Source of the DNA: an uncultured Verrucomicrobiae bacterium
GTDB taxonomy: Bacteria; Verrucomicrobiota; Verrucomicrobiia; Limisphaerales; UBA11358
Direction: 5' to 3'
DNA length: 64,000 bases
Assembly (NCBI GenBank): GCA_963786375.1
Contig: CAWAYP010000010.1
Location: forward strand, 256,660-320,659
The notes below the pieces were generated by a model that saw nothing but the letters and a program-made list of their open reading frames with translations, was not told the DNA's origin and made no database searches. Both the position numbers and the translations under genes were made by a program. Shown here piece after piece: positions 7,754-23,996 of this stretch. Position 1 is the first letter of the stretch; every line of letters starts with the position of its first letter.

Positions 7754-7828
7754 TCCAGAGTAGCTCAATGGTAGAGCAATCGGCTGTTAACCGATGGGTT
7801 GCAGGTTCGAGCCCTGCCTCTGGAGCCA
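7754..7828 (+). tRNA. tRNA-Asn (anticodon GTT) with encoded CCA
   Basis: Hand-folded cloverleaf. Acceptor stem TCCAGAG/CTCTGGA, D arm GCTC-AATGGTA-GAGC, anticodon arm ATCGG-CTGTTAA-CCGAT (GTT). The variable loop is GGGTT, the T arm is GCAGG-TTCGAGC-CCTGC, the discriminator is G, then CCA. Confidence 0.9.
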
Positions 7829-7884: not shown

Positions 7885-9198
7885 GTGGCTGAAACCGAAG
7901 ATGCGAAAGTGAAATATCCCAAGCGCATCAAATACCGTGGCAAAGTTCTCGCCACGATCTACGGCAAGTGCAAAGGGCGCCATTCTTACCGCGTGGCTTG
8001 GCACGTGGCGGGCCAGCGGCGCATGGCGTCTTTCCCATCCTATTCGCTGGCCAAAGGTCACGCTGACGCTCTGGTGAAGGATTTGGCTAAAGGATCACAA
8101 GTCACCGCGCTAAATCCCGCACAGGCCCGCGGTGCGTTGGCCGCGCTGGAACGGCTCGCCGACTTCTATCGCGCCACGGGCCGCCGGGTTTCCCTCCTGG
8201 CGGGCATTTCCGAATTTGTTGAGGCATCCACGAAGTTGAACGGGCGCACTTTGGGCGAAGCGGTCACGGGTTACTTGCACACAGTCGCCACTGTAAAACG
8301 CAAAGACATCGGTGAAGCAGTCGCGGAATTTTTGCAGGCCGATGCCCCACGCACAAAAGCCAACAATGGTCAGCGGGCGCAACTTTCGGCCAAGTATGCC
8401 TACAACCGGAAAATCCAGCTCGACAAATTCGCTGCCACGTTCCCGAACACTGCCGTCAGCGAATTGAGCAAGGAGCATGTGGATAAATTTCTCGGCTCGC
8501 TGGAGGATTTCTCGGCGAAGTCGCGCAACCACTATCGCGCCGCCGTCCGGCAATTCCTGCAATGGGCTGTCCGCAAGGATTATCTTGCCCCAACTCACCG
8601 CCTTCTGGAAGCCGACGCCATGCGACCGGAGCGGGCAAACACCGCTGAAATCGCCTTTTACACGCCGCGCGAGTTTGGCGCATTGCTTGAAGCCGCCGAC
8701 GCGAGCCTGCGCCCGATGATCGCCATTGGCGGGTTGGCCGGACTGCGCACGGAAGAACTGTTGCGGCTGGCTTGGGGGGATGTCTGGCGCGTGCCGGGAC
8801 ACATTGAAATCACGGCGGGCAAGGCCAAGACTCGTCAACGGCGGCTCGTTGAGATTTGCTCGGCGTTGCAGACGTGGCTTGAACCCTACCGCGAGCACAA
8901 GACGGGCAAACTCTGGACGCGCAATCCGAATGGTTTCCATATTGAAATGCCTGCGCTGTGCAAGCGGGTGGGGATTGACCGCAAGGCTAACGGGCTGCGC
9001 CACGCTTTTTGCACATATCACTTCGCTTTGCATGCCAACGAAAATTTGACTGCGGCGCAAGGGGGCAACTCGCCGGCCATGATTCATGCGCACTACAAAG
9101 GCTTGGCCACAAAGAAGGAGGCCGAGCAGTGGTTCAACGTGCGTCCCGCAAAATCTGCTGCGAACGTTGTTCCCTTTCCGAAACAAGCGGGCGCATGA
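7885..9198 (+). CDS. tyrosine-type site-specific integrase of the island
   Basis: The ORF is open from inside the tRNA. The first plausible start is GTG at 7885 (alternative GTG at 7909). The catalytic region contains GLAGLRTEELLRLAWGDV (Arg), LRHAFCTYHFALH (His-x-x-Arg region) and AMIHAHYKG (His...Tyr). Confidence 0.85.
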   Translation: MAETEDAKVKYPKRIKYRGKVLATIYGKCKGRHSYRVAWHVAGQRRMASFPSYSLAKGHADALVKDLAKGSQVTALNPAQARGALAALERLADFYRATGRRVSLLAGISEFVEASTKLNGRTLGEAVTGYLHTVATVKRKDIGEAVAEFLQADAPRTKANNGQRAQLSAKYAYNRKIQLDKFAATFPNTAVSELSKEHVDKFLGSLEDFSAKSRNHYRAAVRQFLQWAVRKDYLAPTHRLLEADAMRPERANTAEIAFYTPREFGALLEAADASLRPMIAIGGLAGLRTEELLRLAWGDVWRVPGHIEITAGKAKTRQRRLVEICSALQTWLEPYREHKTGKLWTRNPNGFHIEMPALCKRVGIDRKANGLRHAFCTYHFALHANENLTAAQGGNSPAMIHAHYKGLATKKEAEQWFNVRPAKSAANVVPFPKQAGA

Positions 9199-9785
9199 AT
9201 AATCCAGTCGAACTCCGATTCCACGCCTGGCACAAGGATGAACAGGTGTTCACACTTCACGGTTGGCGAGCGCGCGAAGGATTGGCTTTTGCGATGGATT
9301 CGGAAGGGCAGCGGCATGTCCTGCGTTTCATGCCACTCACGGGCACGGGTGGAGATGAAGCTTGGCATCCCCCGCCGTTCCCGGAGGAGTTGCCGACCAA
9401 AATCGAGGAGATTCGATTGGTCCCGCCCCCCTGCCGAGCCAATGCAACCGAGGCTGAATGGCTCAGGAAAGAATCCGCCGCGAAGAAACCGCGTAGCGGT
9501 ATCGAACCGATGCAGGTTTCTCATCACCTTGCTGCGCAGCCGTGGGAACTCGCCCGACTCTGCTACGACCGTGAAGTTCTAACGCCGCAATCGGAGGACG
9601 ATGGCCCGATGACGACCCGGCTGGATGAATTCAGGATACAAGTGCAAGGAGAATATGAAGCCCGCAGGATGGAAATGGCGACGCTGATCAGTCTGCTGGA
9701 CGAGGGCCAGCCCACCGTTGGTGTTGCGCGCTGCCGAACCGTGACGAAAATCAACAGTTCAAGGACGCCAGGGTATAGGGCATAG
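9195..9785 (+). CDS. hypothetical protein, translationally coupled to the integrase
   Basis: The ATG at 9195 overlaps the integrase stop (ATGA). 196 aa with no motif I recognise. Confidence 0.45.
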   Translation: MNNPVELRFHAWHKDEQVFTLHGWRAREGLAFAMDSEGQRHVLRFMPLTGTGGDEAWHPPPFPEELPTKIEEIRLVPPPCRANATEAEWLRKESAAKKPRSGIEPMQVSHHLAAQPWELARLCYDREVLTPQSEDDGPMTTRLDEFRIQVQGEYEARRMEMATLISLLDEGQPTVGVARCRTVTKINSSRTPGYRA

Positions 9786-9939
9786 CCTCTAGCGCCGTCA
9801 CGAACCTACAGAGCCAGAAAATGTAGGTGGATTCGGTGGAAAGGGCCTTGTGCTGGCGACGGAGCACACAGCGTAGTTGTTCGATGGCTAGGTCTCGTTT
9901 CATAAATGAATCGAGAGCCTGACAGAAGCCCTTGGACAA
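9751..9939 (-). pseudogene. intI: N-terminal fragment of an integron integrase (IntI-like), truncated after about 55 codons
   Basis: The segment AIEQLRCVLRRQHKALSTESTYIFWLCRFV matches the IntI N-terminal SAM-like pattern ([29 protein letters not shown] in IntI1). It is oriented divergently from the attI/cassette array, as in integrons. Confidence 0.4.
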
Positions 9940-10057
9940 ATGCGGTCCAATGGACTGAAATTAAACGAACCATTGGTTCGTTTATTCAAAATGGGTGTGT
10001 TGAATATGAACAGGTTAGAAGATTTGAACTTGCCTTTAACGATTTTTGTGATAAATG

Positions 10058-10176
10058 AACCAACAGTCGTATATTGAGGCCACATTTTGTTGATTGCAAA
10101 CGACTTAAAAAATGCTGCTTGGGTTCAAAGTCCGGTTTGGATATACAACCAATAGTCGTATAATAACAAGTTAGGC
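10058..10176 (+). other. candidate attI site: two 18-bp direct repeats plus a crossover core ending AACAAGTTAGGC
   Basis: AACCAACAGTCGTATATT (10058-10075) and AACCAATAGTCGTATAAT (10147-10164). The core GTTAGGC lies at 10170-10176. The end TAATAACAAG|TTAGGC resembles the attI1 simple site ...AAAACAAAG|TTAGGC (from memory). Confidence 0.45.
10137..10164 (+). promoter_or_regulatory. candidate cassette promoter (Pc-like): TTGGAT - 16 nt - TATAAT
   Basis: A perfect -10 hexamer TATAAT lies at 10159-10164, and a TTG-containing -35 lies at 10137-10142. Both sit just upstream of the attI crossover and point into the cassettes. Confidence 0.4.
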
Positions 10177-10185
10177 ATCACTGCC

Positions 10186-10617
10186 ATGCCCGCAAGATAC
10201 TCCAAGACATTTCGCAGCGGCACACCGGAATATCCGACGCCACGCTTGCTTGTGGAGCGCATGGTTGCCGAGTTGGTTAGCTCCAGGCAGTGGGGTTGGG
10301 TCACGTTCGAGACGAGGCCCACGAAGCATTTCGTGGAGGTTGCACTTGAGGGCGACGATGAGTTGGTCATCAATGCGGCGTATGGATTTTCCGAGGATTA
10401 CCAGACATTGTTTGCCAGACAGCAAGTGACGGTTCCAGATGGCTGGCGAGTTACCAAGTTTAAGAAGAAAGATTGGCTTGGAGCAGGCACGATGCTCTTG
10501 ACAACAGGCATTCGTGACGTTGACCGGATTGCGGAGTTTATTGACCGACTTTTTCCGGCACTTTACGGCGAGCAGGCGAGCTATCAGTTGAGCGGGATTT
10601 TTCAGTCATCACCGTGA
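10186..10617 (+). CDS. integron cassette ORF 1, hypothetical protein
   Basis: 143 aa. The ATG lies 10 nt after the GTTAGGC core, and the stop lies 1 nt before the GCCTAAC of attC1. The 12-bp sequences GTTAGGCATCAC (10170-10181) and GTGATGCCTAAC (10614-10625) flank it as a perfect inverted pair. Confidence 0.6.
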   Translation: MPARYSKTFRSGTPEYPTPRLLVERMVAELVSSRQWGWVTFETRPTKHFVEVALEGDDELVINAAYGFSEDYQTLFARQQVTVPDGWRVTKFKKKDWLGAGTMLLTTGIRDVDRIAEFIDRLFPALYGEQASYQLSGIFQSSP

Positions 10618-10618
10618 T

Positions 10619-10745
10619 GCCTAACACCGCGCTGGAGCCAACGCCGACTGCCCCTTGAGTTTATGGACGGTTTGAGTTATACAACGATTATCGAGCTTGC
10701 GGAGCCACTCGCCGGTCGGCGTGGCTCAGCTTTGGAACGTTAGGC
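10619..10745 (+). repeat. attC site 1 (127 bp)
   Basis: Starts GCCTAAC (inverse core RYYYAAC) and ends GTTAGGC (core GTTRRRY). The inner arms GCTGGAGCCAACGCCGAC / GTCGGCGTGGCTCAGC pair with two bulged bases on the left arm. Confidence 0.7.
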
Positions 10746-10773
10746 TGCATCGAACATCACACCAAATCACACT

Positions 10774-11262
10774 ATGGAAACAAGAATACTTGGTTTATTG
10801 ATAGCATCCACGCTCACGCTCGCCTTTTCCGGCTCACGGGCGGCAGAGAGCATCGTTACACCAGCAATGGTTGGCCATTGGGAAGGAAACGCCCGGATCG
10901 TTTCAGCTTGGTGTCACCAAACGAACCTTCCCGTTAAGGTGGACATCCACGCCGATGGAAGCGTGACTGGCACCGTCGGGGATGCCAAGCTCACGGAGGG
11001 TCGTTTCGAGTCGAATTGCGGTTGGTTGGGCCGTAAGTTGAATCTGTATTCGGACTATATTATCACTGGAGGTCTTGACGGTGCCATCGTCACGGCGGAG
11101 AACATCACACGCTCCAGCGTAAAGATGCCGCTTAACTTTAGCGACGGCACATTTGCAGGCGGAGTCAATACGAGCGGTTCAGGGCTTGAAGGCTCTGATG
11201 GAAAAAAAGGAGAAGGACATTGGCTCGCCGCTGGTGGTTTAACGCTGACTCGTTCACCATGA
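10774..11262 (+). CDS. integron cassette ORF 2, secreted hypothetical protein
   Basis: 162 aa with a signal peptide (LLIASTLTLAFSGSRAAES). The 13-bp sequences GTTAGGCTGCATC (10739-10751) and GATGCAGCCTAAC (11261-11273) flank it as a perfect inverted pair. The stop lies 4 nt before attC2. Confidence 0.6.
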   Translation: METRILGLLIASTLTLAFSGSRAAESIVTPAMVGHWEGNARIVSAWCHQTNLPVKVDIHADGSVTGTVGDAKLTEGRFESNCGWLGRKLNLYSDYIITGGLDGAIVTAENITRSSVKMPLNFSDGTFAGGVNTSGSGLEGSDGKKGEGHWLAAGGLTLTRSP

Positions 11263-11266
11263 TGCA

Positions 11267-11394
11267 GCCTAACACCGCGCTGGAGCCAACGGCCACTGCC
11301 CCTTCAGTTTCGACCAACAAATGAAATTTGATTGTCACGGTTGCATTTCGGAGTCACTTTCCAGTGGCCGTGGTTCAGCTTTGGATCGTTAGGC
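11267..11394 (+). repeat. attC site 2 (128 bp)
   Basis: Same architecture as attC1. The distal stem co-varies (GGCCACTG / CAGTGGCC instead of GCCGAC / GTCGGC), and the same two bulges are kept. Confidence 0.7.
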
Positions 11395-11487
11395 GGCTAT
11401 GCAAACACCATCGTTCAGACTACTGCGGCGTGTGATTGCCTACTTGATTGGAGCCTTCCTTATCGGTTGGGGTTTATGCTGTCTTGG

Positions 11488-11727
11488 TTACGAGGGTTTG
11501 TTTCCGGCACGGATGATGCCCGTGCTTTCATCCTTCGCCCAGGATGGGATCAGCCCCCATCGCATGAGCTTTACCGCCGGCTGGTGTCGTTCATGATAAA
11601 TCACCGGCGCCATTTGTGTCGGTGCGATGTTGTAACGGGGCGCGAAGAACGGTACCCGCGCCATGACGACGCCCATCAGTTTGATCAGCTCGCTAAAATC
11701 TTTCGCAGCCGTATATCGCCCACACAT
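11488..11727 (-). pseudogene. truncated SOS-response-associated peptidase (SRAP/YedK family), N-terminal 79 codons only
   Basis: MCGRY (catalytic Cys2), RYNIAPTQ and WGLIPSWAKD motifs are present. The ORF stops after about one third of the normal length. Confidence 0.7.
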
Positions 11728-12066
11728 GCCAACAGATTATCACACACCCCGGACAATGGCTGTCCAACCAAAAAACTACGCGGGAGTATGTAGATAACGC
11801 AAATTGAGGCTTTCGGCTCCAAAATGGCGTTTTTGGCTAGTAAATCAAATCACGCTGTTGAGGCTGTTGTCCAACATCGCGCTCCTCTTTTGCAAACCCC
11901 TTTTTCGAGAGTGCATAAGGTGAATTTGAAATCAAATAGCTAAAAAATCGTTGAAATCGTGCTGAAAAAAGAACAAAATCAGCAAAGAGCCCATGCCGGT
12001 CGTGGGCGAGATTTAAATGGCAAATTCCGGATAAAATCAGTAAAGGGAAACAACAGGAGAACTTCC

Positions 12067-12849
12067 ATGAAAAATACACGCAGAGCTTCAATCGCCGCAA
12101 CCGCCCTGCTCGGCTTATGCCTGACCCGTCCGGCCCAGGCGCAAATCTTTGTCGCGAACAATAACGATGGCAACAACACGATTGGCGAATACAACTTGGA
12201 TGGATCGTCGGTCAATCCCTCGCTGATCTCAGGGCTGCGTCTCCCTATTGGCCTAGCGGTGTCTGGAGGCAATATCTTTGTCGCGGACTATGGCAACGGC
12301 CTCGCTGGCAACGGCGCGATTGCCGAATACACCACGGCGGGCGCGACCGTCAACGCCTCTCTGGTCTCAGTGCTGTATGAACCATGGGGCATCGCGGTGT
12401 CTGGAGGCAATATCTTTGTCGCGAACGCTGGCTCCGGCACGATTGGCGAATACACGATTTCCGGGGAGACCGTTAATGCTTCCCTAATTTCCGGGTTGAA
12501 TTACCTCTATGGCATCGCGATTTCGGGTAATGACGTGTTTGTGGCAAACGGGGTGAGCGGCTCGATTGGCGAATACACGACTTCCGGGGAGACGGTCAAT
12601 GCATCGCTAATTTCTGGATTGGATTACCCTGAAGGCATCGCGATTTTTGGAAACGACCTGTTTGTCTCGAATAGTGGCAACGGCACTATCGGCGAATACA
12701 CGACTTCCGGGGAGACTGTCAATGCGTTGCTGATTTCTGGCTTGAATGGCCCCACTGGCATCGCCATCGGTCCAGTGCCAGAGCCCTCGGCCGGCGCGTT
12801 TGCAGGTGTGGGCGCGGCAGTGTTGTGGCTGTGGCGCCGTCGCAAATAG
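12067..12849 (+). CDS. PEP-CTERM-anchored beta-propeller-like repeat protein
   Basis: Signal peptide, then six roughly 40-aa repeats (G.IGEYT..G.TVNASLISGL..P.GIA.SGN..FVAN). The C-terminal PEP-CTERM sorting signal is VPEPSAGAFAGVGAAVLWLWRRRK. I chose the start at the Met preceding the signal peptide. Confidence 0.75.
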   Translation: MKNTRRASIAATALLGLCLTRPAQAQIFVANNNDGNNTIGEYNLDGSSVNPSLISGLRLPIGLAVSGGNIFVADYGNGLAGNGAIAEYTTAGATVNASLVSVLYEPWGIAVSGGNIFVANAGSGTIGEYTISGETVNASLISGLNYLYGIAISGNDVFVANGVSGSIGEYTTSGETVNASLISGLDYPEGIAIFGNDLFVSNSGNGTIGEYTTSGETVNALLISGLNGPTGIAIGPVPEPSAGAFAGVGAAVLWLWRRRK

Positions 12850-12874
12850 CGAAGGTGATGTTTTGTTCAGTTGG

Positions 12875-14170
12875 ATGATGAGAAGCACGAAAATAATCTA
12901 TGGAATCGCCTTGGCTCTTACGTGTATTTTGGCAGCCACACTCAAGGCGCAAAATTTATACGTCACTTCTTTTGCCAACGGCACCACCGGCAAATACACG
13001 ACCGCAGGGGCGACAGTCAATGCTTCCCTGATTTCCGGATTGCAGAGCCCCAGTGGTATCGCGATTTCCGGGACCAACCTGTTTGTTGCAAACTTTGCAA
13101 GCGGAACGGTTGGCCATTACACGACGGATGGCGCGACAATCAATGCTTCGCTGATTTCCGGGTTGAATCTCCCTTGTGGCATTGCGATTTACGGGAACGA
13201 CCTGTTTGTTGCGAATAGTGGTGGCGGCACCACCACTGGCCAACAACTCAGCCTCCGCACCAAGGACGAAGCGGAAGCCCACACTTTGCTTCACTCGAAA
13301 AACGAAGCGCACCGGCAACCTGTCCTCAATCTGCGTATTGCTCAGACATATCTGACCGCCACCGACCCCGAAGTGGCGAGGCGGACATGGCAGGTGCCGA
13401 TGGATGAAATGACCAAGACCAAGACCGGCTCTACGCGCCACCGGCACGAAGTAGCGATGAAGGACAAGGCGTTTGACCTGATTCGGAACCTGCCGATTCT
13501 GGAAACCCACTCGGCCCACTTCCTGAAAGTGTTGGAACTGGGCACCGTCTCGACGAATGTTTACTTGCGGCGGATTCACAACTTTGCCTTGGACATGAAC
13601 TGGCTGCCGTGGCCGGTGTTGCCGAGGAAGCAGTGGCCGCAAGTGCGCTTCAAGGAAAAGCGGGCCATCACGCTGGAGGAACACCAGCGCATTATTGAGG
13701 CCGAAGTGAACCCGGAACGCAAAAACCTTTACCAGTTGTGCTGGCACTTGGGCGCGAGCCAGGGCGACATTGCCAACTTGAAAGGCGAGGACGTGGACTG
13801 GAAGAACAGCACCGTCAGTTTCATCCGCAAAAAGACCGGCGTGCCGGTGCTGGTGCATTTGGGAGCAGAGGCACTAAACCTTTTCAAGGACCTGCCCGCC
13901 GAAGGTTTGTTGTTTCCGTATCTTGCGAGTGTGCGCGCCGGCGACCGCGCCACGGAGTTTAAGCAACGGTGCAAGCAACTGGGCATCCAAGGGGTTACAC
14001 TCCACAGCTACCGGTACGCTTGGGCCGAACGCGCCAAAATGGTTGGCTACCCGGAACGGTTTGCGCAGGAGGCTTTGGGACATAACAGCAAGGCGGTACA
14101 TCGGGCCTATGCGAGACGGGCACTGATGAAGATTCCCTCACTGGAAGAATACGAGCAACGGGTGGCCTAA
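12875..14170 (+). pseudogene. chimeric ORF: N-terminal part of a second propeller-repeat paralogue fused in frame (junction near 13230) to a 5'-truncated tyrosine integrase
   Basis: Residues up to ...IAIYGNDLFVANSGGGT follow the repeat pattern of 12067-12849. The sequence then switches to TGQQLSLRTKDEAEAH... with integrase motifs (LHSYRYAWAERA, GHNSKAVHRAY). No PEP-CTERM tail is present. Confidence 0.65.
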
Positions 14171-14291
14171 CGATCCAAAGCTGAGCCACGCCGACGGGCA
14201 AGTGGCTCCGCAAACTTGATGATCGTTGTATAACTCAAACCGTCCATAAACTCAATGGGCAGTCGGCGTTGGCTCCAGCGCGGTGTTAGGC
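14165..14291 (-). repeat. attC-type site 3, reverse-complement copy of attC1
   Basis: The reverse complement aligns along its full length with attC1, with only scattered mismatches by eye. The bulged bases are now on the right arm of the plus strand, so the orientation is genuinely inverted. Its GCCTAAC supplies the TAA stop of the integrase ORF. Confidence 0.65.
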
Positions 14292-14329
14292 TGCTTGGAT
14301 TCAAATTGCAAGTGCGACAAGCTTGGTGG

Positions 14330-14630
14330 GTGAAATATCATCAATTAAGGACCGAGGAGCGGTATGAGATTGCCGCAATGCGGCGGCAGAGTTTGCGGAT
14401 GGCAGCGATGGCGAAACATCTTGGGCGGCATCGTAGCACGTTGTATCGGGAGGTGAAGCGCAATCAGTCCGTGCACGATGGCTGCTATCGCCCCAGCCAT
14501 GCAGTGGAGAAAGCCAGCGGACGGCAGCGGCGTTCCCGCCGAAACTGGCGGTATGGGCCAGCGGAGTTTGCGCCCATCGAGGCGATGATCCGAGAGGGAT
14601 TCAGCCCGGAGCAGATCGTTGGGCGACGAA
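14330..14630 (+). pseudogene. IS30-family transposase, N-terminal HTH fragment
   Basis: VKYHQLRTEERYEIAAM......MAKHLGRHRSTLYREVKRN....Y....A and GFSPEQIVGR follow the IS30 N-terminal pattern. The DDE domain is absent, and the reading frame runs into unrelated antisense sequence. Confidence 0.6.
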
Positions 14631-16185: not shown

Positions 16186-17100
16186 GTGACCCTGGGTGAT
16201 AATTCGCATATGATAATTGCCACTGATAGAAAAGTCAACCATGCAGAGCATGATGCACACACTGCATACCTGTCACCTGTTAGTTTGGAGGGAGACAGGC
16301 ACAGGGTATTGGAACTTGATCGAATCTATCACGCAGATGCATTTGAGATGTTCCCCCACATAGAGGACGGGAGCATTGATCTGGTTGTTTGCGATGGCCC
16401 TTACGGAATCACCTCTAACAAATGGGACAGAATCGGTAATATTCAGGAATTCAACTTAAAGCTAATCAGTATCTTCGCCGCAAAGCTGAAAGATGGGGGT
16501 GCGCTTTACCTTTTCGGAAAGCAAGATTGCATTGACTTTATTGACTACCGACCCCTTTTGAACTTGCGCTCAAAGATTGTTTGGTATCAACCAAGCCGTC
16601 TTGCCCAAGGGCGGATCAACTATACGAATAACTACGACATAATTTGCTATTTTATCAAGGGCGAAAGACCGAAGACATACGATCTCAATGCCATTCGCGT
16701 AGCCCAACTCGTCGAGCTGCAGCACCGTCTTCGCTGCGAGCGTGTTCCATCCGTTACCAACGGAAAGTTCGGCAAGACAAAGTTCAATGGAGATGGCAAA
16801 AACCCTGGTGATGTGTGGGGCGATATTAAGCAACTTACCTACAAATCGAAGGAATTAGTAAGCCGTAATGCACTCAACACGATCCAGAAGCCTGAACAAC
16901 TGATGGAAAGGGTGTTAAAGGCTAGCTCCGCAGAGGGCGATCTTGTCTTGGATCCGTTTACTGGTGTAGGCACATGTCCTGTTGTGTGCAAGCGGCTTGG
17001 GCGACGTTTCATCGGTATTGAGAAAGATATTTATTTCGTAGAGGCGGCAAACAAGAGACTTCAAGACGTCGCTTGCGATTTTGCTGGAAGACTTTTCTGA
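16186..17100 (+). CDS. beta-class DNA (amino) methyltransferase, N6-adenine or N4-cytosine
   Basis: The catalytic motif IV variant LVVCDGPYG precedes the AdoMet motif I DLVLDPFTGVGTCPVV, which is the beta-class order. The C-terminal FIGIEKD fits. The start is GTG at 16186 or ATG at 16210. Confidence 0.85.
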   Translation: MTLGDNSHMIIATDRKVNHAEHDAHTAYLSPVSLEGDRHRVLELDRIYHADAFEMFPHIEDGSIDLVVCDGPYGITSNKWDRIGNIQEFNLKLISIFAAKLKDGGALYLFGKQDCIDFIDYRPLLNLRSKIVWYQPSRLAQGRINYTNNYDIICYFIKGERPKTYDLNAIRVAQLVELQHRLRCERVPSVTNGKFGKTKFNGDGKNPGDVWGDIKQLTYKSKELVSRNALNTIQKPEQLMERVLKASSAEGDLVLDPFTGVGTCPVVCKRLGRRFIGIEKDIYFVEAANKRLQDVACDFAGRLF

Positions 17101-17102
17101 TT

Positions 17103-17624
17103 ATGGCACAAGAAATCTATCGCAGAATCATAGAGTTGGTTCTAAAGGCAGCGGACTTGGCAAGGTCTATCGGCATCAACAACTTGCTTCAGCCTGGGCT
17201 GGTGAAAGAGATGATAATCGCCGATATTCTCGGACACGAACTTATTCATTCCAAGCGTGATGCGGATGCTCACGCTCCAAACAACCCTAGCGAGAAGTTC
17301 GAGTATCTATCCTGCAAGGAAGGAGGGTCTGGCCAACTTGACAGAATGTTTAAGGAACCTGCATATAAGCGTGCCGACTCTATAAGCCGGATCACGCGTA
17401 ATAAAAAAATATACTTTGCGGTGTTCTACGCTGAAAACCAGACGAAATGCAAGGTCATATATGAGATTGAGCCACAGGTCATGGTTGAGGAAACGGAACG
17501 ACAACTCGACCGAAGCGGAAACGAGATTTCACACGTGGGTTTCTCTGAAAATTGGGCAAGCCGTAACGGACGAATCGTTTATCAGGACAACTGCGGACAC
17601 CAAAACGGACACCAAAGGAGTTAA
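17103..17624 (+). CDS. PvuII-family type IIP restriction endonuclease
   Basis: Begins 3 nt after the methyltransferase stop. IGINNLLQ, LVKEMIIADILGHEL, DADAHAPNNPSEKFEYLSCK and IYFAVFY....VIYEIEP align with R.PvuII. The R.PvuII equivalents are HGINDIFQ, GKLLQVLLITGLTVL, NDAVDNAGQEYELKS and WIFAIYRG...AIYRLEP, recalled from memory. Confidence 0.65.
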   Translation: MAQEIYRRIIELVLKAADLARSIGINNLLQPGLVKEMIIADILGHELIHSKRDADAHAPNNPSEKFEYLSCKEGGSGQLDRMFKEPAYKRADSISRITRNKKIYFAVFYAENQTKCKVIYEIEPQVMVEETERQLDRSGNEISHVGFSENWASRNGRIVYQDNCGHQNGHQRS

Positions 17625-17904: not shown

Positions 17905-17985
17905 ATGAGACAACGATACCGGCTCTACCGCCGCAAACAGGGCGGACGCTACTACATCCACGACGATGTGACGGGCAAGCAGGAC
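17905..17985 (+). pseudogene. orphan 5' end (about 26 codons) of an integrase of the same family as 13231-14170
   Basis: MRQRYRLYRRKQGGRYYIHDDVTGKQ supplies the N-terminus missing from the truncated copy, which resumes at TGQQLSLRTKDEAEA. The rest of the 111-aa ORF is unrelated low-complexity sequence. Confidence 0.4.
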
Positions 17986-18653
17986 AACTTGCTGGCCTTT
18001 GTTGGAAGCGGCCCGTTCTATCCCGAGACAACCAATGATGCTGTGAACAGCGACGCCACGTATGAAAATTCGTCCAGTCCGGGGAGCGGCGTGGCCACGC
18101 CGCCGGGCAGCCCGGGCACACAATTCACCGTGGGGCTTTATGGTGACACGAACGCTGTTTACGAATACATCTCCGATGGGAATGGGAACCAGGGACGGAC
18201 ATACGGAATTGGCGTGGACATTTTGCCCGTTTCGCCGTGACCATCCCGTCGCAGCATTCTTGACAAAACTTCAACTTGCCTTAAATAGGCCACGCCATAG
18301 CAGAAATCGGAGGGCATCTCTGGAAAACGGCCATACCAGGAGATGAGTCTCGTCAACTGAAACCAAGCAATTGATGCGACGGATGATTAATTTCGGGAAA
18401 GACCCGCTGCGTATTTGCGCCTAAAAAGGTTCGGAAAAGGGTTCGATCCTGTAGGAAAAGGATAATCCGCGTATAGCGCCCCCCCGAATCCAAGTTTGCC
18501 GGGAATCGAGAGGCCAAGTCTAGGACACCTTCAACAGCCTTAGGGTGGAAAAACAGCGACCAGCAACCATAACCCATTGCCCAATGTTGATCAGAAAACG
18601 ATGTCAAAAAGCCCGCACCGATTCTCCACCGAAGTGGCTTATGCCCGGGTAGG

Positions 18654-18776
18654 TACCCGGAACGGTTCGCGCAGGAGGCTTTGGGCCACAACAGCAAGGC
18701 GGTGCATCGCGCCTATGCAAAACGGGCGCTGATGAAAATTCCTTCGCTGGAAGATTACGAACAACGGGCAACGTGA
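18654..18776 (+). pseudogene. orphan 3' end (40 codons) of the same integrase family
   Basis: It translates to YPERFAQEALGHNSKAVHRAYAKRALMKIPSLEDYEQRAT*. This is co-linear with the last 40 residues of the 12875-14170 ORF at both DNA and protein level. Confidence 0.6.
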
Positions 18777-18800: not shown

Positions 18801-18813
18801 GTTAGGCGGCACA
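18801..18813. repeat. cassette-boundary core GTTAGGCGGCACA
   Basis: Perfect 13-bp inverted partner of TGTGCCGCCTAAC at 19381-19393. Confidence 0.55.
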
Positions 18814-18833
18814 GCGTAACGGTTACACATCCG

Positions 18834-19364
18834 TCATCCTTCTGGGAAGGTAGCCTTCACACGCTTGGAAACACTAAAATAGCAATACCAAATAATAAAA
18901 ACAAATGCGGAATAAAATAAGCCGTCTTTCACTTGACCGCTCACAAAGCGCATACACTCATCAGGCAGACCGAAACCCATGTAAAGAAATGCAAGCGAAC
19001 CCAATGACCATGCCAAACGTATGATCAAGTAACGCTTCACGAAACGCACAGCTCCGGGTCGTAGTCTTCTCAAATTCAAGGCCGCGATGAAACCGAATAT
19101 GAAAATCCCCAAGTTGCCAACGAAGACTACGAACGGCAGGTAACCAATATTACCATTTAAATCCTTGTCCCACACGTTCATCACCGTCGTCATCAGTTCT
19201 ACGCCATAAATAAGCATAAATAAGGGGGCTATGAAAAGTCGGATGATGCAAAAAACGAGCAGCCAACCACTGTAGCCTTTGTAACGGTTAACAGACGGGT
19301 TGGTGGATGCTGGTGGTAAAACTCCTTCTGATTTAGCCGTGATGTTTGATGGATTTTCGCTCAT
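18834..19364 (-). CDS. multi-pass membrane protein, hypothetical; cassette-like unit
   Basis: 176 aa with 4-5 hydrophobic helices. It is bracketed by GTTAGGC/GCCTAAC cores with 13-bp extended complementarity. On the minus strand the core-to-ATG distance is 22 nt, as in the other cassettes. Confidence 0.6.
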   Translation of the reverse strand: MSENPSNITAKSEGVLPPASTNPSVNRYKGYSGWLLVFCIIRLFIAPLFMLIYGVELMTTVMNVWDKDLNGNIGYLPFVVFVGNLGIFIFGFIAALNLRRLRPGAVRFVKRYLIIRLAWSLGSLAFLYMGFGLPDECMRFVSGQVKDGLFYSAFVFIIWYCYFSVSKRVKATFPEG

Positions 19365-19380
19365 ATCCGCAATGTAATAT

Positions 19381-19393
19381 TGTGCCGCCTAAC
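19381..19393. repeat. cassette-boundary inverse core TGTGCCGCCTAAC
   Basis: Perfect inverted partner of 18801-18813. Confidence 0.55.
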
Positions 19394-19620
19394 GTCAAAT
19401 ATAGGCACAGCCACAGCAGCCGGGCCTCAAATGGAATGATGATAATCAAGTTTTGGATCATGGTCAAAACTGAAAGGCGCATGGCTGTTGGCTGCTGGTA
19501 AATTGAAAAGCGGACGACCTGCTGGATCGAACAGTTGTGGCTCTCAGTGAAGGAGCAAATTCGTATCCTCCAGGCGTCCGCTAAATTGTTAAACCGATTA
19601 ACCACAACCAAAGGTATGTT

Positions 19621-20506: not shown

Positions 20507-21814
20507 ATGAAAATAAAAAGCATCCTGACCATGTTCATCGCGCTGTCAGCCAGCGCTTACCAACTCATCGCGCAAGGCGTGACCTTTACGAACCAAACTT
20601 TTAGCGTCGGCAGTCAACCGGCTTTCGCCGCAGTGGTTGATATCAATGGTGACGGCAAGCCGGATTTGATTAGCGCAAACACCGGCGGAGGAGCTGGCAA
20701 CACCCTGACGGTGTTGACGAACAATGGCAGCGGTGGTTTTGTTTTTAATGCCACTCTTACCGTGGGCAGTAATCCGCAGTCCGTTGCGGCGGCAGATGTC
20801 AACGGCGACGGCTATATTGATTTAATCTGTGGGGATGATAATAGTAGCTCTTTGACTGTGCTGACGAACAATGGCAGCGGTGTCTTCGGCTTCAATGCTA
20901 CACTTACTGTTGGCGGTAATCCGCAGTGCGTCATTGCGGCGGATGTCAATGGCGATAACAAACCCGATTTGATCAGTGCAAATAACAGTTCCGCCTCGCT
21001 GACGATCCTCACCAACAATGGCAGCGGTGTCTTCGGCTTCAATGCCACGCTCAGCGTTGGCAATACGCCATTTTCTGTCATTGCGGCGGACCTCAGAGGC
21101 AGTGGCCATTTGGATTTAATCTCTGCAAATTACGGCGGCAACTCGCTGACGGTATACACAAACAATGGCAGCGGTGTCTTCGGCTTCAATGCCACGCTGA
21201 ATGTGGGCAACTCTCCGACGTGCGTCATTGCGGCGGACCTCAGAGGCAGTGGCCATTTGGATTTAATCTCTGCAAATTCCGGCGGCAACTCGCTGACGGT
21301 ATACACGAACAATGGCAGTGGTGTCTTTGGCCTCAATGCGACAATCACAACCGTGGGGAGCAGGCCATTTTCCGTTGCGGCGGCAGATGTCAATGGCGAC
21401 GGCAAGCTGGATTTAATTTCTGCAAACAATACCGCTGGCACACTAACGGTGTTGACGAACAATGGCAGTGGGGTATTCGGCCTTAATACCACGCTCACCG
21501 TAGGCAATGGGCCTTATTGTGTATTGGCAGCGGATGTCAACGGCGATGGCAAACCGGATTTGGTTTGTGTAAATAATTTAGACTCCACACTGACGGTGCT
21601 ATACAACACGACCGTATTTCCCACACCGCTATTGGGCATTGGGGCTTACGGCAACCAATCGGTTCTCTTTTGGCCAGCATCAGTCACGAATGTTGTCCTG
21701 CAAACCACCACCAACCTGTCGTCGCCAAACTGGGTGACTGTTTCCAACGGCACGCCGTTCACCGCAATTGGATTCACCAACTCGTCACCCGCACAATTCT
21801 TCCGTCTGCATTGA
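20507..21814 (+). CDS. secreted FG-GAP/VCBS-repeat protein with a C-terminal FFR-ending module
   Basis: Signal peptide, then seven roughly 49-58-aa repeats (LTVLTNNGSGVFGFNATLTVG..P..V.AADVNGDGKPDLISAN). The C-terminal domain ends SSPAQFFRLH. Confidence 0.85.
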   Translation: MKIKSILTMFIALSASAYQLIAQGVTFTNQTFSVGSQPAFAAVVDINGDGKPDLISANTGGGAGNTLTVLTNNGSGGFVFNATLTVGSNPQSVAAADVNGDGYIDLICGDDNSSSLTVLTNNGSGVFGFNATLTVGGNPQCVIAADVNGDNKPDLISANNSSASLTILTNNGSGVFGFNATLSVGNTPFSVIAADLRGSGHLDLISANYGGNSLTVYTNNGSGVFGFNATLNVGNSPTCVIAADLRGSGHLDLISANSGGNSLTVYTNNGSGVFGLNATITTVGSRPFSVAAADVNGDGKLDLISANNTAGTLTVLTNNGSGVFGLNTTLTVGNGPYCVLAADVNGDGKPDLVCVNNLDSTLTVLYNTTVFPTPLLGIGAYGNQSVLFWPASVTNVVLQTTTNLSSPNWVTVSNGTPFTAIGFTNSSPAQFFRLH

Positions 21815-23973: not shown

Positions 23974-23996
23974 CGAGCCCTGCCTCTGGAGCCAAT
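23974..23996 (+). repeat. attR-side 23-bp direct repeat (copy of tRNA-Asn 3' end)
   Basis: Perfect match to 7808-7830. The upstream flank no longer resembles the tRNA. Confidence 0.85.

Follow-up and report, generated by a model that had tools for sequence, protein, structure and literature searches.

Positions 9751-11394 of a 64,000-nt stretch of DNA from an uncultured Verrucomicrobiae bacterium (contig CAWAYP010000010.1 of assembly GCA_963786375.1; the whole stretch is called the window below) hold two short genes, each followed by a palindromic element of about 127 bp, and raise the question of whether these are the cassettes of an integron that has lost its integrase. An initial annotation, made from the sequence alone, had proposed a decayed integron platform with a truncated intI, an attI with promoter and two intact cassettes. 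In integrons, cassettes are inserted by the integrase IntI, which folds the attC hairpin's bottom strand and recombines it with attI; excision occurs between one attC and another, the cut lying between G and TT of GTTAGGC, and the promoterless cassettes are transcribed from a promoter in the intI-attI region. The proposed reading was borne out overall, as the attC sites, their clustering, the complementarity of the cassette cores and the matches of the 62-codon open reading frame (ORF) upstream all favoured it, and the locus is very probably a decayed integron platform with two intact cassettes. In the course of events that we propose, an integron would once have been carried inside a 16-kb tRNA-Asn island of this Verrucomicrobiota bacterium and would now be a remnant. 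Its intI is almost wholly deleted, with an N-terminal piece of about 35 codons kept on the minus strand, while the region between intI and attI is retained together with an attI-like junction (G10170|TTAGGC). Two complete cassettes, each of one ORF and a 127/128-nt attC, follow this junction, the array breaks after the start of a third cassette, and further array pieces (one attC that is intact, one that is degraded and a DUF2569 cassette) lie inverted to the right, among fragments of insertion sequences (IS) and tyrosine recombinases.

attC sites of the window and their family in relatives

The elements behind the two cassette ORFs were found exactly where they had been placed, beginning with GCCTAAC and ending with GTTAGGC. 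In all three intact copies in the window (attC1 to attC3, Table 1) these outer boxes fit the consensus R''=RYYYAAC / R'=GTTRRRY with its AAC/GTT triplet, and the pattern GCCTAAC-N90-120-GTTAGGC was matched three times in the window and never in 100 shuffles. Folded as single-stranded DNA, all copies share one hairpin with a 7-bp outer stem (GCCTAAC/GTTAGGC), an internal loop and a long stem, the 5' arm of the top strand carrying two unpaired bases, one of G16/G17 and one of A22/A23. Opposite G16/G17 there is only one C, and opposite A22/A23 only one T; extrusion of G16 and A23 would give a spacing of 6 bp. The spacer between the R and L boxes is 5 nt long on the 5' arm (ACCGC) and 8 nt on the 3' arm (TTTGGAAC), and 2-3 of these nucleotides are weakly paired in the fold. 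The imperfect hairpin and shared bulged bases of the initial annotation were seen in the folds of all copies, and the co-variation that it had noted in the distal stem (GCCGAC/GTCGGC in attC1, GGCCAC/GTGGCC in attC2) represents real compensatory change. In the anatomy described for attC sites, extrahelical bases lie on the R''-L'' arm at 16 and 23/24 with a 6-bp stem between them, the last is a conserved T on the bottom strand, the spacer has 5-6 unpaired nt and the length is 57-141 bp (Nivina et al., 2016, PMC5027507). The two window sites fall within this length range, and in their folds the extrahelical bases sit where the canonical description puts them (16/17 and 22/23). Under DNA parameters, 11 of 13 sites folded more stably as bottom than as top strand, one was tied and one went the other way, in line with the reported bottom-strand bias of ~1.3 kcal/mol (PMC5027507). 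RNA parameters, applied to both strands, favoured the top strand, and these folds were dropped as unsuitable for DNA.

A 19-mer of the conserved attC 5' arm, scanned against one genome per species, retrieved at least 119 stretches; those among the matches listed were mostly metagenome-assembled genomes (MAGs) of Verrucomicrobiota from soil and peat, often with several copies per 8 kb and with 16 in L040. The assignment of the host to the Verrucomicrobiota follows the labels carried by related contigs and protein matches. An alignment (A2) of 57 sites, comprising 54 diverse copies from relatives and three from the window, provided a covariance model (CM; R1) made from the relatives only. Standard pairs occupy 96.9% of the 1308 cells of this alignment and 12 of the 23 pairs change on both sides; pairing reaches 96% in the seven R-box pairs and 97.2% in the 16-bp inner helix, of which eleven pairs are changed on both sides, and columns G16, G17, A22 and A23 are invariant. 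None of 500 shuffles reached any of the five pairing measures, and sliding the 3' partners by 1-3 columns left 17-39% paired. Against this family-specific model attC1 and attC2 gave E-values of ~1e-32 to 1e-33 (scores in Table 1), a favourable outcome of an attC-model check made with a model of the family itself. Nothing convincing beyond the four attC sites of Table 1 was found in the CM search of the 64-kb window. Both elements are genuine integron attC sites, their identity and structure being directly established; their recombination by an IntI is predicted.

Applied to the relatives, model R1 found 232 sites in 60 loci, falling into size classes of 99, 108 and 127-129 nt that differ in the central part. 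The family is clustered and not scattered: among the 340 full-length sites counted in 89 loci, another site follows or precedes on the same strand within 4 kb in 91% of cases, at a median spacing of 471 bp, and sites on both strands were seen in a single one of the 89 loci. The search of related MAGs for an intact intI, which had also been suggested, was likewise productive. Full-length IntI homologues were located by tblastn with IntI1 in at least 10 loci, each divergent from an array of this attC family, and they are 46-53% identical to IntI1 over ~330 residues. Five of them, scanned against NCBIfam, matched TIGR02249 (integron integrase) with 413-457 bits at a cut-off of 265, and all nine that were aligned contain the IntI-specific insertion motif AL..KYP.A...W.WQWVFP. 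The attC family belongs to integrons, its association with intact IntI genes in relatives being a matter of observation.

The same family, often with at least 90% identity, also occurs under various phylum labels (L002, L024, L040, L048, L055, L057, L065 and others), the MAG labels including Eremiobacterota (16 sites in 8 kb), Acidobacteriota, Bifidobacteriaceae, Patescibacteria, Gammaproteobacteria and others. This reflects either cross-phylum cassette transfer or mis-binning of integron contigs. It fits the report that attC sites group according to environment and not according to phylogeny (Ghaly et al., 2021, PMC8352920).

Cassette boundaries, core complementarity and cassette genes

ORF1 is flanked by a perfect 12-bp inverted pair (GTTAGGCATCAC...GTGATGCCTAAC) and ORF2 by a perfect 13-bp pair (GTTAGGCTGCATC...GATGCAGCCTAAC), as had been read off the sequence initially. 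A third case was found on the minus strand, where the DUF2569 cassette is enclosed by a perfect 15-nt inverted pair that includes the core (ACGTTAGGCGGCACA / TGTGCCGCCTAACGT) and retains only the R'' box (18801-18807) of its own attC. For cassettes 1 and 2 the core is extended by 5 and 6 bp of complementarity with the start of the same cassette. The claim that this extension matches the cassette's own start, and not the sequence that follows, turned out to be a family-wide rule. Across the 247 cassettes bounded by consecutive attC sites, perfect complementarity past the 7-bp core averaged 3.7 bp with the own start versus 0.58 bp with the next (Wilcoxon p = 1.2e-34), and variant cores covary likewise (e.g. 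GTTAGAC...GTCTAAC in L070). Complementarity of this kind is the footprint expected of a circular cassette form opened at G|TT.

Both cassettes recur in other arrays. A cassette 88-90% identical to cassette 1 lies in the middle of an array with 12 attC sites on contig L130, where the homology has exact limits, GTTAGGC at its start and the closing GTTAGGC of the attC at its end, both flanks being unrelated. Cassette 2 is 92% identical in L135 and L136 and 88.6% identical in L137, in each case behind other cassettes and with an attC of 99 nt instead of 128 nt. Both window units are real cassettes, and their boundaries and their presence in other arrays were observed directly. After the start of the third cassette the array is taken to be broken, because no attC was found by the CM search between 11394 and 14165.

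Two side observations concern these units. The ORF2 cassette has a 99-nt attC in L135 (1577-1675) versus 128 nt in the window (11267-11394), and the two sites are alike only in the first ~40 nt and the final arm; the same cassette with attC sites of different length implies that the attC centre is exchangeable or can be remodelled without a change of the gene. In L120, a contig nearly identical to the window, an SRAP-domain fragment is called on the strand opposite to the start of the third cassette.

The 127-nt elements might alternatively be a generic palindromic repeat, such as a repetitive extragenic palindromic (REP) element, a miniature inverted-repeat transposable element (MITE) or a terminator-like structure, unrelated to integrons. 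As long imperfect palindromes repeated in the genome, with modest z-scores when single sequences are folded (-1.9 to -2.7) and with no match at the attC sites in an Rfam gathering scan of the window, which found only the tRNA, they have features that such a repeat would share. However, the relatives show one-strand arrays with one ORF per unit beside IntI genes, and all four copies in the window lie inside the 16-kb island, which speaks against a family dispersed through the genome. This array context, the cassette-specific complementarity, the exact break of cassette homology at G|TTAGGC, the lack of a T-run after the stem and the confinement to the island together refute the explanation by a generic repeat, which we regard as extremely improbable.

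The cassette ORFs had been described as of unassigned function, and this description holds. The ORF1 family comprises 57 clusters and the ORF2 family 238, all unnamed or 'hypothetical', the few labelled cluster members being from Verrucomicrobiota, and no Pfam domain was detected in either ORF. The model of ORF1 (predicted local distance difference test score, pLDDT, 90.9) has an alpha/beta fold, for which the fold search returned a weak likeness to type III secretion chaperones (best E 0.009, template modelling score, TM, ~0.45). In ORF2 the N-terminus forms a hydrophobic helix and a beta-barrel is predicted; its fold matches, of avidin/lipocalin/Cap15-like kind, are weak. The fold searches with ORF1 and ORF2 gave weak matches only, with E above 0.001.

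More distant homologues of ORF1 and ORF2 (59-84%) lie in ordinary chromosomal neighbourhoods without attC sites. The birth of cassettes from chromosomal genes was considered as a reading of these non-cassette homologues and was rejected, since at least two of them (L131 and L134) keep decayed cassette ends, consisting of GTCAGGCATAAC... and a degenerate attC 5' arm; these two look like former cassettes because such ends are kept. Decayed ends were located at L131 4640-4700, L134 3680-3770 and L126 6510-6530, e.g. GTCAGGCATAACTTCGCACGCC before the ATG and TGCCGGCTAAGAATTCGCCGGCGCCAAT after the stop. The chromosomal homologues with decayed ends look like cassettes that were stranded or domesticated outside arrays. 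A 58%-identical ORF2 homologue (L129, 6001-6507) was found inside a NiFe-hydrogenase (Hox-type) operon, between the genes of a 51K-like and a ferredoxin-like subunit and with a 4-nt overlap with the upstream gene, an odd place for a small exported beta-barrel protein.

The intI remnant and the attI-like region

The divergent 62-codon ORF (9751-9939, minus strand) that had been assigned to the N-terminus of IntI exists, is truncated and matches integron integrases, but only residues 19-47 are IntI-like and only ~31 codons are recognisable. Its matches are limited to PF13495 (E 3.7e-4), TIGR02249 (positions 2-34, E 6e-3) and the IntI1 model, and it aligns with 15 bona fide IntI proteins of relatives in their N-terminal helix region, best with that of L042 (54% over 28 residues, E 9e-6); the suspicion that it might derive from a non-IntI recombinase was thus not substantiated by these models. 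In a search of 1738 six-frame pieces of the window with a hidden Markov model (HMM) of the relatives' IntI, the remnant was the top match (E 2.3e-5), above two real tyrosine recombinases. The homology ends at ~nt 9799 and the catalytic and IntI-specific domains are absent; further intI pieces were found in the window neither by tblastn with IntI1 and ten relatives' IntI nor by the six-frame HMM search. The likely start codon lies 267 bp from the first crossover point. The position and the minus-strand orientation of the remnant are plainly observed.

An IS was considered as the cause of the intI truncation and rejected. L120 (ENA ERZ25039529 contig_57) contains at 8134-9603 an IS5-family element of 1470 bp, with inverted ends that match imperfectly over 16 nt and with a CTAG target duplication, which maps to window positions 9789-9792, 7-10 nt from the end of the intI homology. 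This is a simple IS5-type insertion into an already truncated junction; it was not the cause of the truncation, because the window and L121 show the empty site.

Upstream of the first core, the attI1-like end ...AACAAG|TTAGGC is present at 10165-10176, as proposed, and at the same relative place relatives have an attI end ...TGTTAGGY. The two 18-bp direct repeats that had been reported are also present, in imperfect form (Table 1). The region is assigned as a putative attI by its position, the GTTAGGC junction and the repeats, and IntI would be expected to bind there. For transcription, the sequence TTGGAT-N16-TATAAT named in the initial annotation does occur, as one of three candidates; it was left unlisted by the consensus scan because its -35 hexamer matches at only three of six positions. 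The candidate TGGACA-N17-TGAAAT lies ~30 nt beyond the intI ATG, where relatives have TTGACA-N16/17-TAnnnT, and points toward the cassettes. One of these candidates probably drives ORF1 and ORF2.

Several observations weigh against a decayed platform. The intI remnant, with ~31 aligned residues and 20 bits, is short and unconvincing alone; there are three promoter candidates, of which the one proposed earlier has a poor -35 hexamer; and no similarity to any of 119 related loci was detected by blastn for the intI-attI region (9300-10200). In the attC sites, the first extrahelical base on the bottom strand would be C where G is usual (the second is T), and the 3'-arm spacer, at 8 nt, is longer than the usual 5-6. 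The shortness of the alignment to IntI and the lack of DNA similarity to the attI of relatives are also what would be seen if the locus were a cluster of attC sites lacking an integron-integrase (CALIN) that arose by cassette insertion at a secondary site and was never a platform, the 62-codon ORF resembling IntI by chance. Such clusters are common, and in 95% of them an intI pseudogene is not recognisable in the vicinity (Cury et al., 2016, PMC4889954). However, the fragment outranks all other six-frame pieces of the window against the IntI profile, including two real tyrosine recombinases, matches integron-integrase models only, and lies, as in relatives, on the opposite strand, with 267 bp separating it from the first crossover point and with a promoter-like site at a conserved distance from its ATG. 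We consider an origin by secondary-site insertion highly improbable and retain the decayed platform.

Island context, locus class and comparison with known systems

The integron had been placed inside a tRNA island, and this was confirmed by 20-nt direct repeats of the tRNA-Asn gene that bound all of its pieces. The 16.2-kb island between the repeats has a tyrosine integrase gene adjoining the tRNA and holds, besides the integron pieces, IS fragments and a methyltransferase gene. The remnant described initially, a platform with two cassettes, proved to be larger and more rearranged, as it includes an additional cassette and two additional attC pieces, all of them inverted. The degraded attC4 lies upstream, in the minus sense, of the DUF2569 cassette and gave the same match in L120.

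Table 1. Features of the integron remnant and of the surrounding island (window positions).
Feature	Position	Strand	Remarks
tRNA-Asn(GTT)	7754-7828	+	ARAGORN, Rfam; last 20 nt (7809-7828) are the left direct repeat
intI remnant	9799-9903	-	ATG 9903-9901; IntI N-terminal homology ~9799-9891, ~31 codons
Promoter candidate TGGACA-N17-TGAAAT	9933-9961	+	From comparison by eye with intergenic regions of relatives; not flagged by consensus scan
Promoter candidate TTGTGA-N18-TATATT	10046-10075	+	Found by consensus scan
Putative attI-like region	10058-10176	+	Direct repeats, promoter-like sites; crossover core GTTAGGC 10170-10176
18-nt direct repeats	10058-10075 and 10147-10164		16/18 identical; 1 of 300 shuffles as good
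Promoter candidate TTGGAT-N16-TATAAT	10137-10164	+	-35 hexamer 3/6
Cassette 1	10171-10739	+	ORF1 10186-10617 (143 aa) and attC1
attC1	10619-10745	+	127 nt; GCCTAAC...GTTAGGC; CM 122.1 bits; last 6 bases belong to next cassette
Cassette 2	10740-11388	+	ORF2 10774-11262 (162 aa) and attC2
attC2	11267-11394	+	128 nt; GCCTAAC...GTTAGGC; CM 128.6 bits
Third cassette start	11389-11596	+	Begins GTTAGGCGGC; 65-codon ORF 11399-11596
NHL-repeat PEP-CTERM gene	11959-12849		After broken third cassette; 62%-identical homologue in attC array (L010 3744-4433)
Tyrosine-recombinase ORF (non-IntI)	12746-14170		Chimeric: N-terminus replaced by NHL-repeat protein with signal peptide; stop in attC3 R' box
attC3, intact, inverted vs array	14165-14291	-	CM 121.6 bits; 94% complementary to attC1; R' end overlaps stop codon of tyrosine-recombinase ORF, R'' end abuts IS30-type helix-turn-helix (HTH) fragment
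N6/N4 DNA methyltransferase gene and overlapping 183-codon ORF	16186-17624		PF01555 E 3e-35; ORF without family match
Second recombinase copy	17905-17985, 18647-18768		Separate N- and C-terminal fragments; C-terminal one beside attC core
DUF2569 cassette	18801-19393	-	ORF 18834-19364, membrane protein, PF10754 E 5.5e-9
attC4, degraded	19403-19493	-	CM 28.4 bits, E 8e-6, model positions 18-109; 5'-side outer boxes diverged
IS110 fragment	Right of DUF2569 cassette/degraded attC		
Right direct repeat	23975-23994	+	Exact 20-nt copy of tRNA-Asn 3' end; 23/25 nt from 23970

Several neighbours of these pieces were also recorded. The NHL-repeat gene may be a former cassette gene, because its homologue in L010 lies within an attC array. 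The start of an IS30-type transposase (HTH_38) abuts the R'' of attC3 at the same base in the window (14165-14420) and in the unrelated L079 (1-240); the IS30 part is ~88% identical between the two and the sequence after the attC differs. This IS30-type element may target attC sites. The methyltransferase and the overlapping 183-codon ORF may form a restriction-modification pair, and an FG-GAP repeat protein gene with six 147-nt tandem units (repeat family D4) lies at 20507-21814.

The platform is unable to move cassettes itself, its intI being destroyed, although the cassettes could presumably still move with an IntI supplied from elsewhere in the genome. A stronger form of this idea is that the locus is no fossil at all but the satellite of another integron, with another locus of the genome encoding the IntI that still shuffles its attI and cassettes. 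This would agree with the scores of attC1 to attC3, which are as high as those of sites in arrays with intact IntI, with ORF1 and ORF2 being intact members of conserved families, with the preservation of the same two cassettes in the near-identical contigs L120 and L121, and with the proposal that CALIN cassettes are mobilised in trans (PMC4889954). Nevertheless, no intact intI lies within the 64-kb window, cassettes have been neither gained, lost nor reordered among the three near-identical contigs, truncated genes and IS fragments crowd the surroundings, and mixed attC orientation, as seen here, is rare in active arrays (1 of 89 loci). We regard continued shuffling as unlikely, though it carries appreciable weight, and keep to a decayed platform. 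A further suggestion, that the 16-kb island brought platform and cassettes as cargo and represents a vehicle of mobile integrons that belongs to Verrucomicrobiota and not to the five proteobacterial classes, with an attC family shared among soil bacteria of several phyla, is doubtful.

A complete integron requires an intI with the IntI-specific additional domain. Only ~31 N-terminal residues were found in the window, and the locus falls outside this class because the integrase is gone. attC1 and attC2 are 648 bp apart (start to start) and the window has no IntI C-terminal domain; by the IntegronFinder definitions (PMC4889954), under which a CALIN has two or more attC sites within 4 kb and lacks an integron integrase gene close by, the locus would be a CALIN with a vestigial intI. 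In itself it is an ordinary decayed integron of a kind already known, and its array would work like any integron array.

The main value accordingly lies in the attC family and the clean cassette footprints, not in the locus itself. The family is well defined and centred on Verrucomicrobiota of soil and peat, with many arrays and intact IntI partners. A set of taxon-specific attC models covers 11 taxa and no Verrucomicrobia (PMC8352920); a Verrucomicrobiota model would help to assign environmental cassette amplicons to hosts. The occurrence of the family in MAGs of other phyla bears on cross-phylum cassette exchange or mis-binning. The very regular 3-6 bp by which R-box pairing extends into the start of the same cassette provide a clean natural footprint of cassette intermediates in circular form, and the chromosomal copies of cassette genes with vestigial cassette ends may, if they are what they appear to be, record how cassettes are shed and domesticated.

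Among known systems, class 1 integrons are resembled by the putative attI in its end ...AACAA(A)G|TTAGGC and in the two direct repeats upstream of the crossover, and the cassette start GTTAGGCATCAC presumably resembles common class 1 cassette starts. There is no other detectable sequence homology with class 1 integrons; identity of the relatives' IntI to IntI1 is only 44-53%, the attC sites are about twice the length typical of mobile integrons, and nothing similar was found in a search of 72,556 plasmids.

The initial annotation had called integrons of this kind poorly documented in the phylum. This was only partly right: integrons in Verrucomicrobia were listed by Cury et al. (2016, PMC4889954) and decayed arrays (CALIN) are documented as well, while the phylum is not among the 11 taxa with attC models mentioned above. 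In permafrost MAGs, integrons are reported to number about one per genome across phyla (PMC13323075). A close class is the CALIN with an intI pseudogene (Cury et al., 2016, PMC4889954), which likewise has at least two attC sites without a functional integrase and IS nearby; that study explains CALINs by intI loss and by rearrangements that break arrays up. The pseudogenes in that study were found via the IntI C-terminal domain, whereas here only the N-terminal ~31 residues are left; a screen of this type would call the locus a CALIN without pseudogene because the C-terminal domain is absent.

Among sedentary chromosomal integrons, the superintegron of Vibrio cholerae with its VCR repeats differs in its host, here a member of the Verrucomicrobiota, in its attC sequence, which is unrelated, and in the extrahelical bases, of which there are two here versus three in the V. 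cholerae repeat VCR2 (a VCR of 133 bp was studied in PMC5027507). Here, moreover, the integrase is destroyed, two cassettes are in place and the location is a tRNA island as opposed to a fixed chromosomal site. In its organisation, however, the superintegron is similar: it likewise has a long and homogeneous attC family (here of 99, 108 and 127-129 nt) whose members are similar even centrally, one small ORF per unit, cassette genes mostly of unknown function, and a divergent intI with a promoter, here a candidate one, in the intI-attI region.

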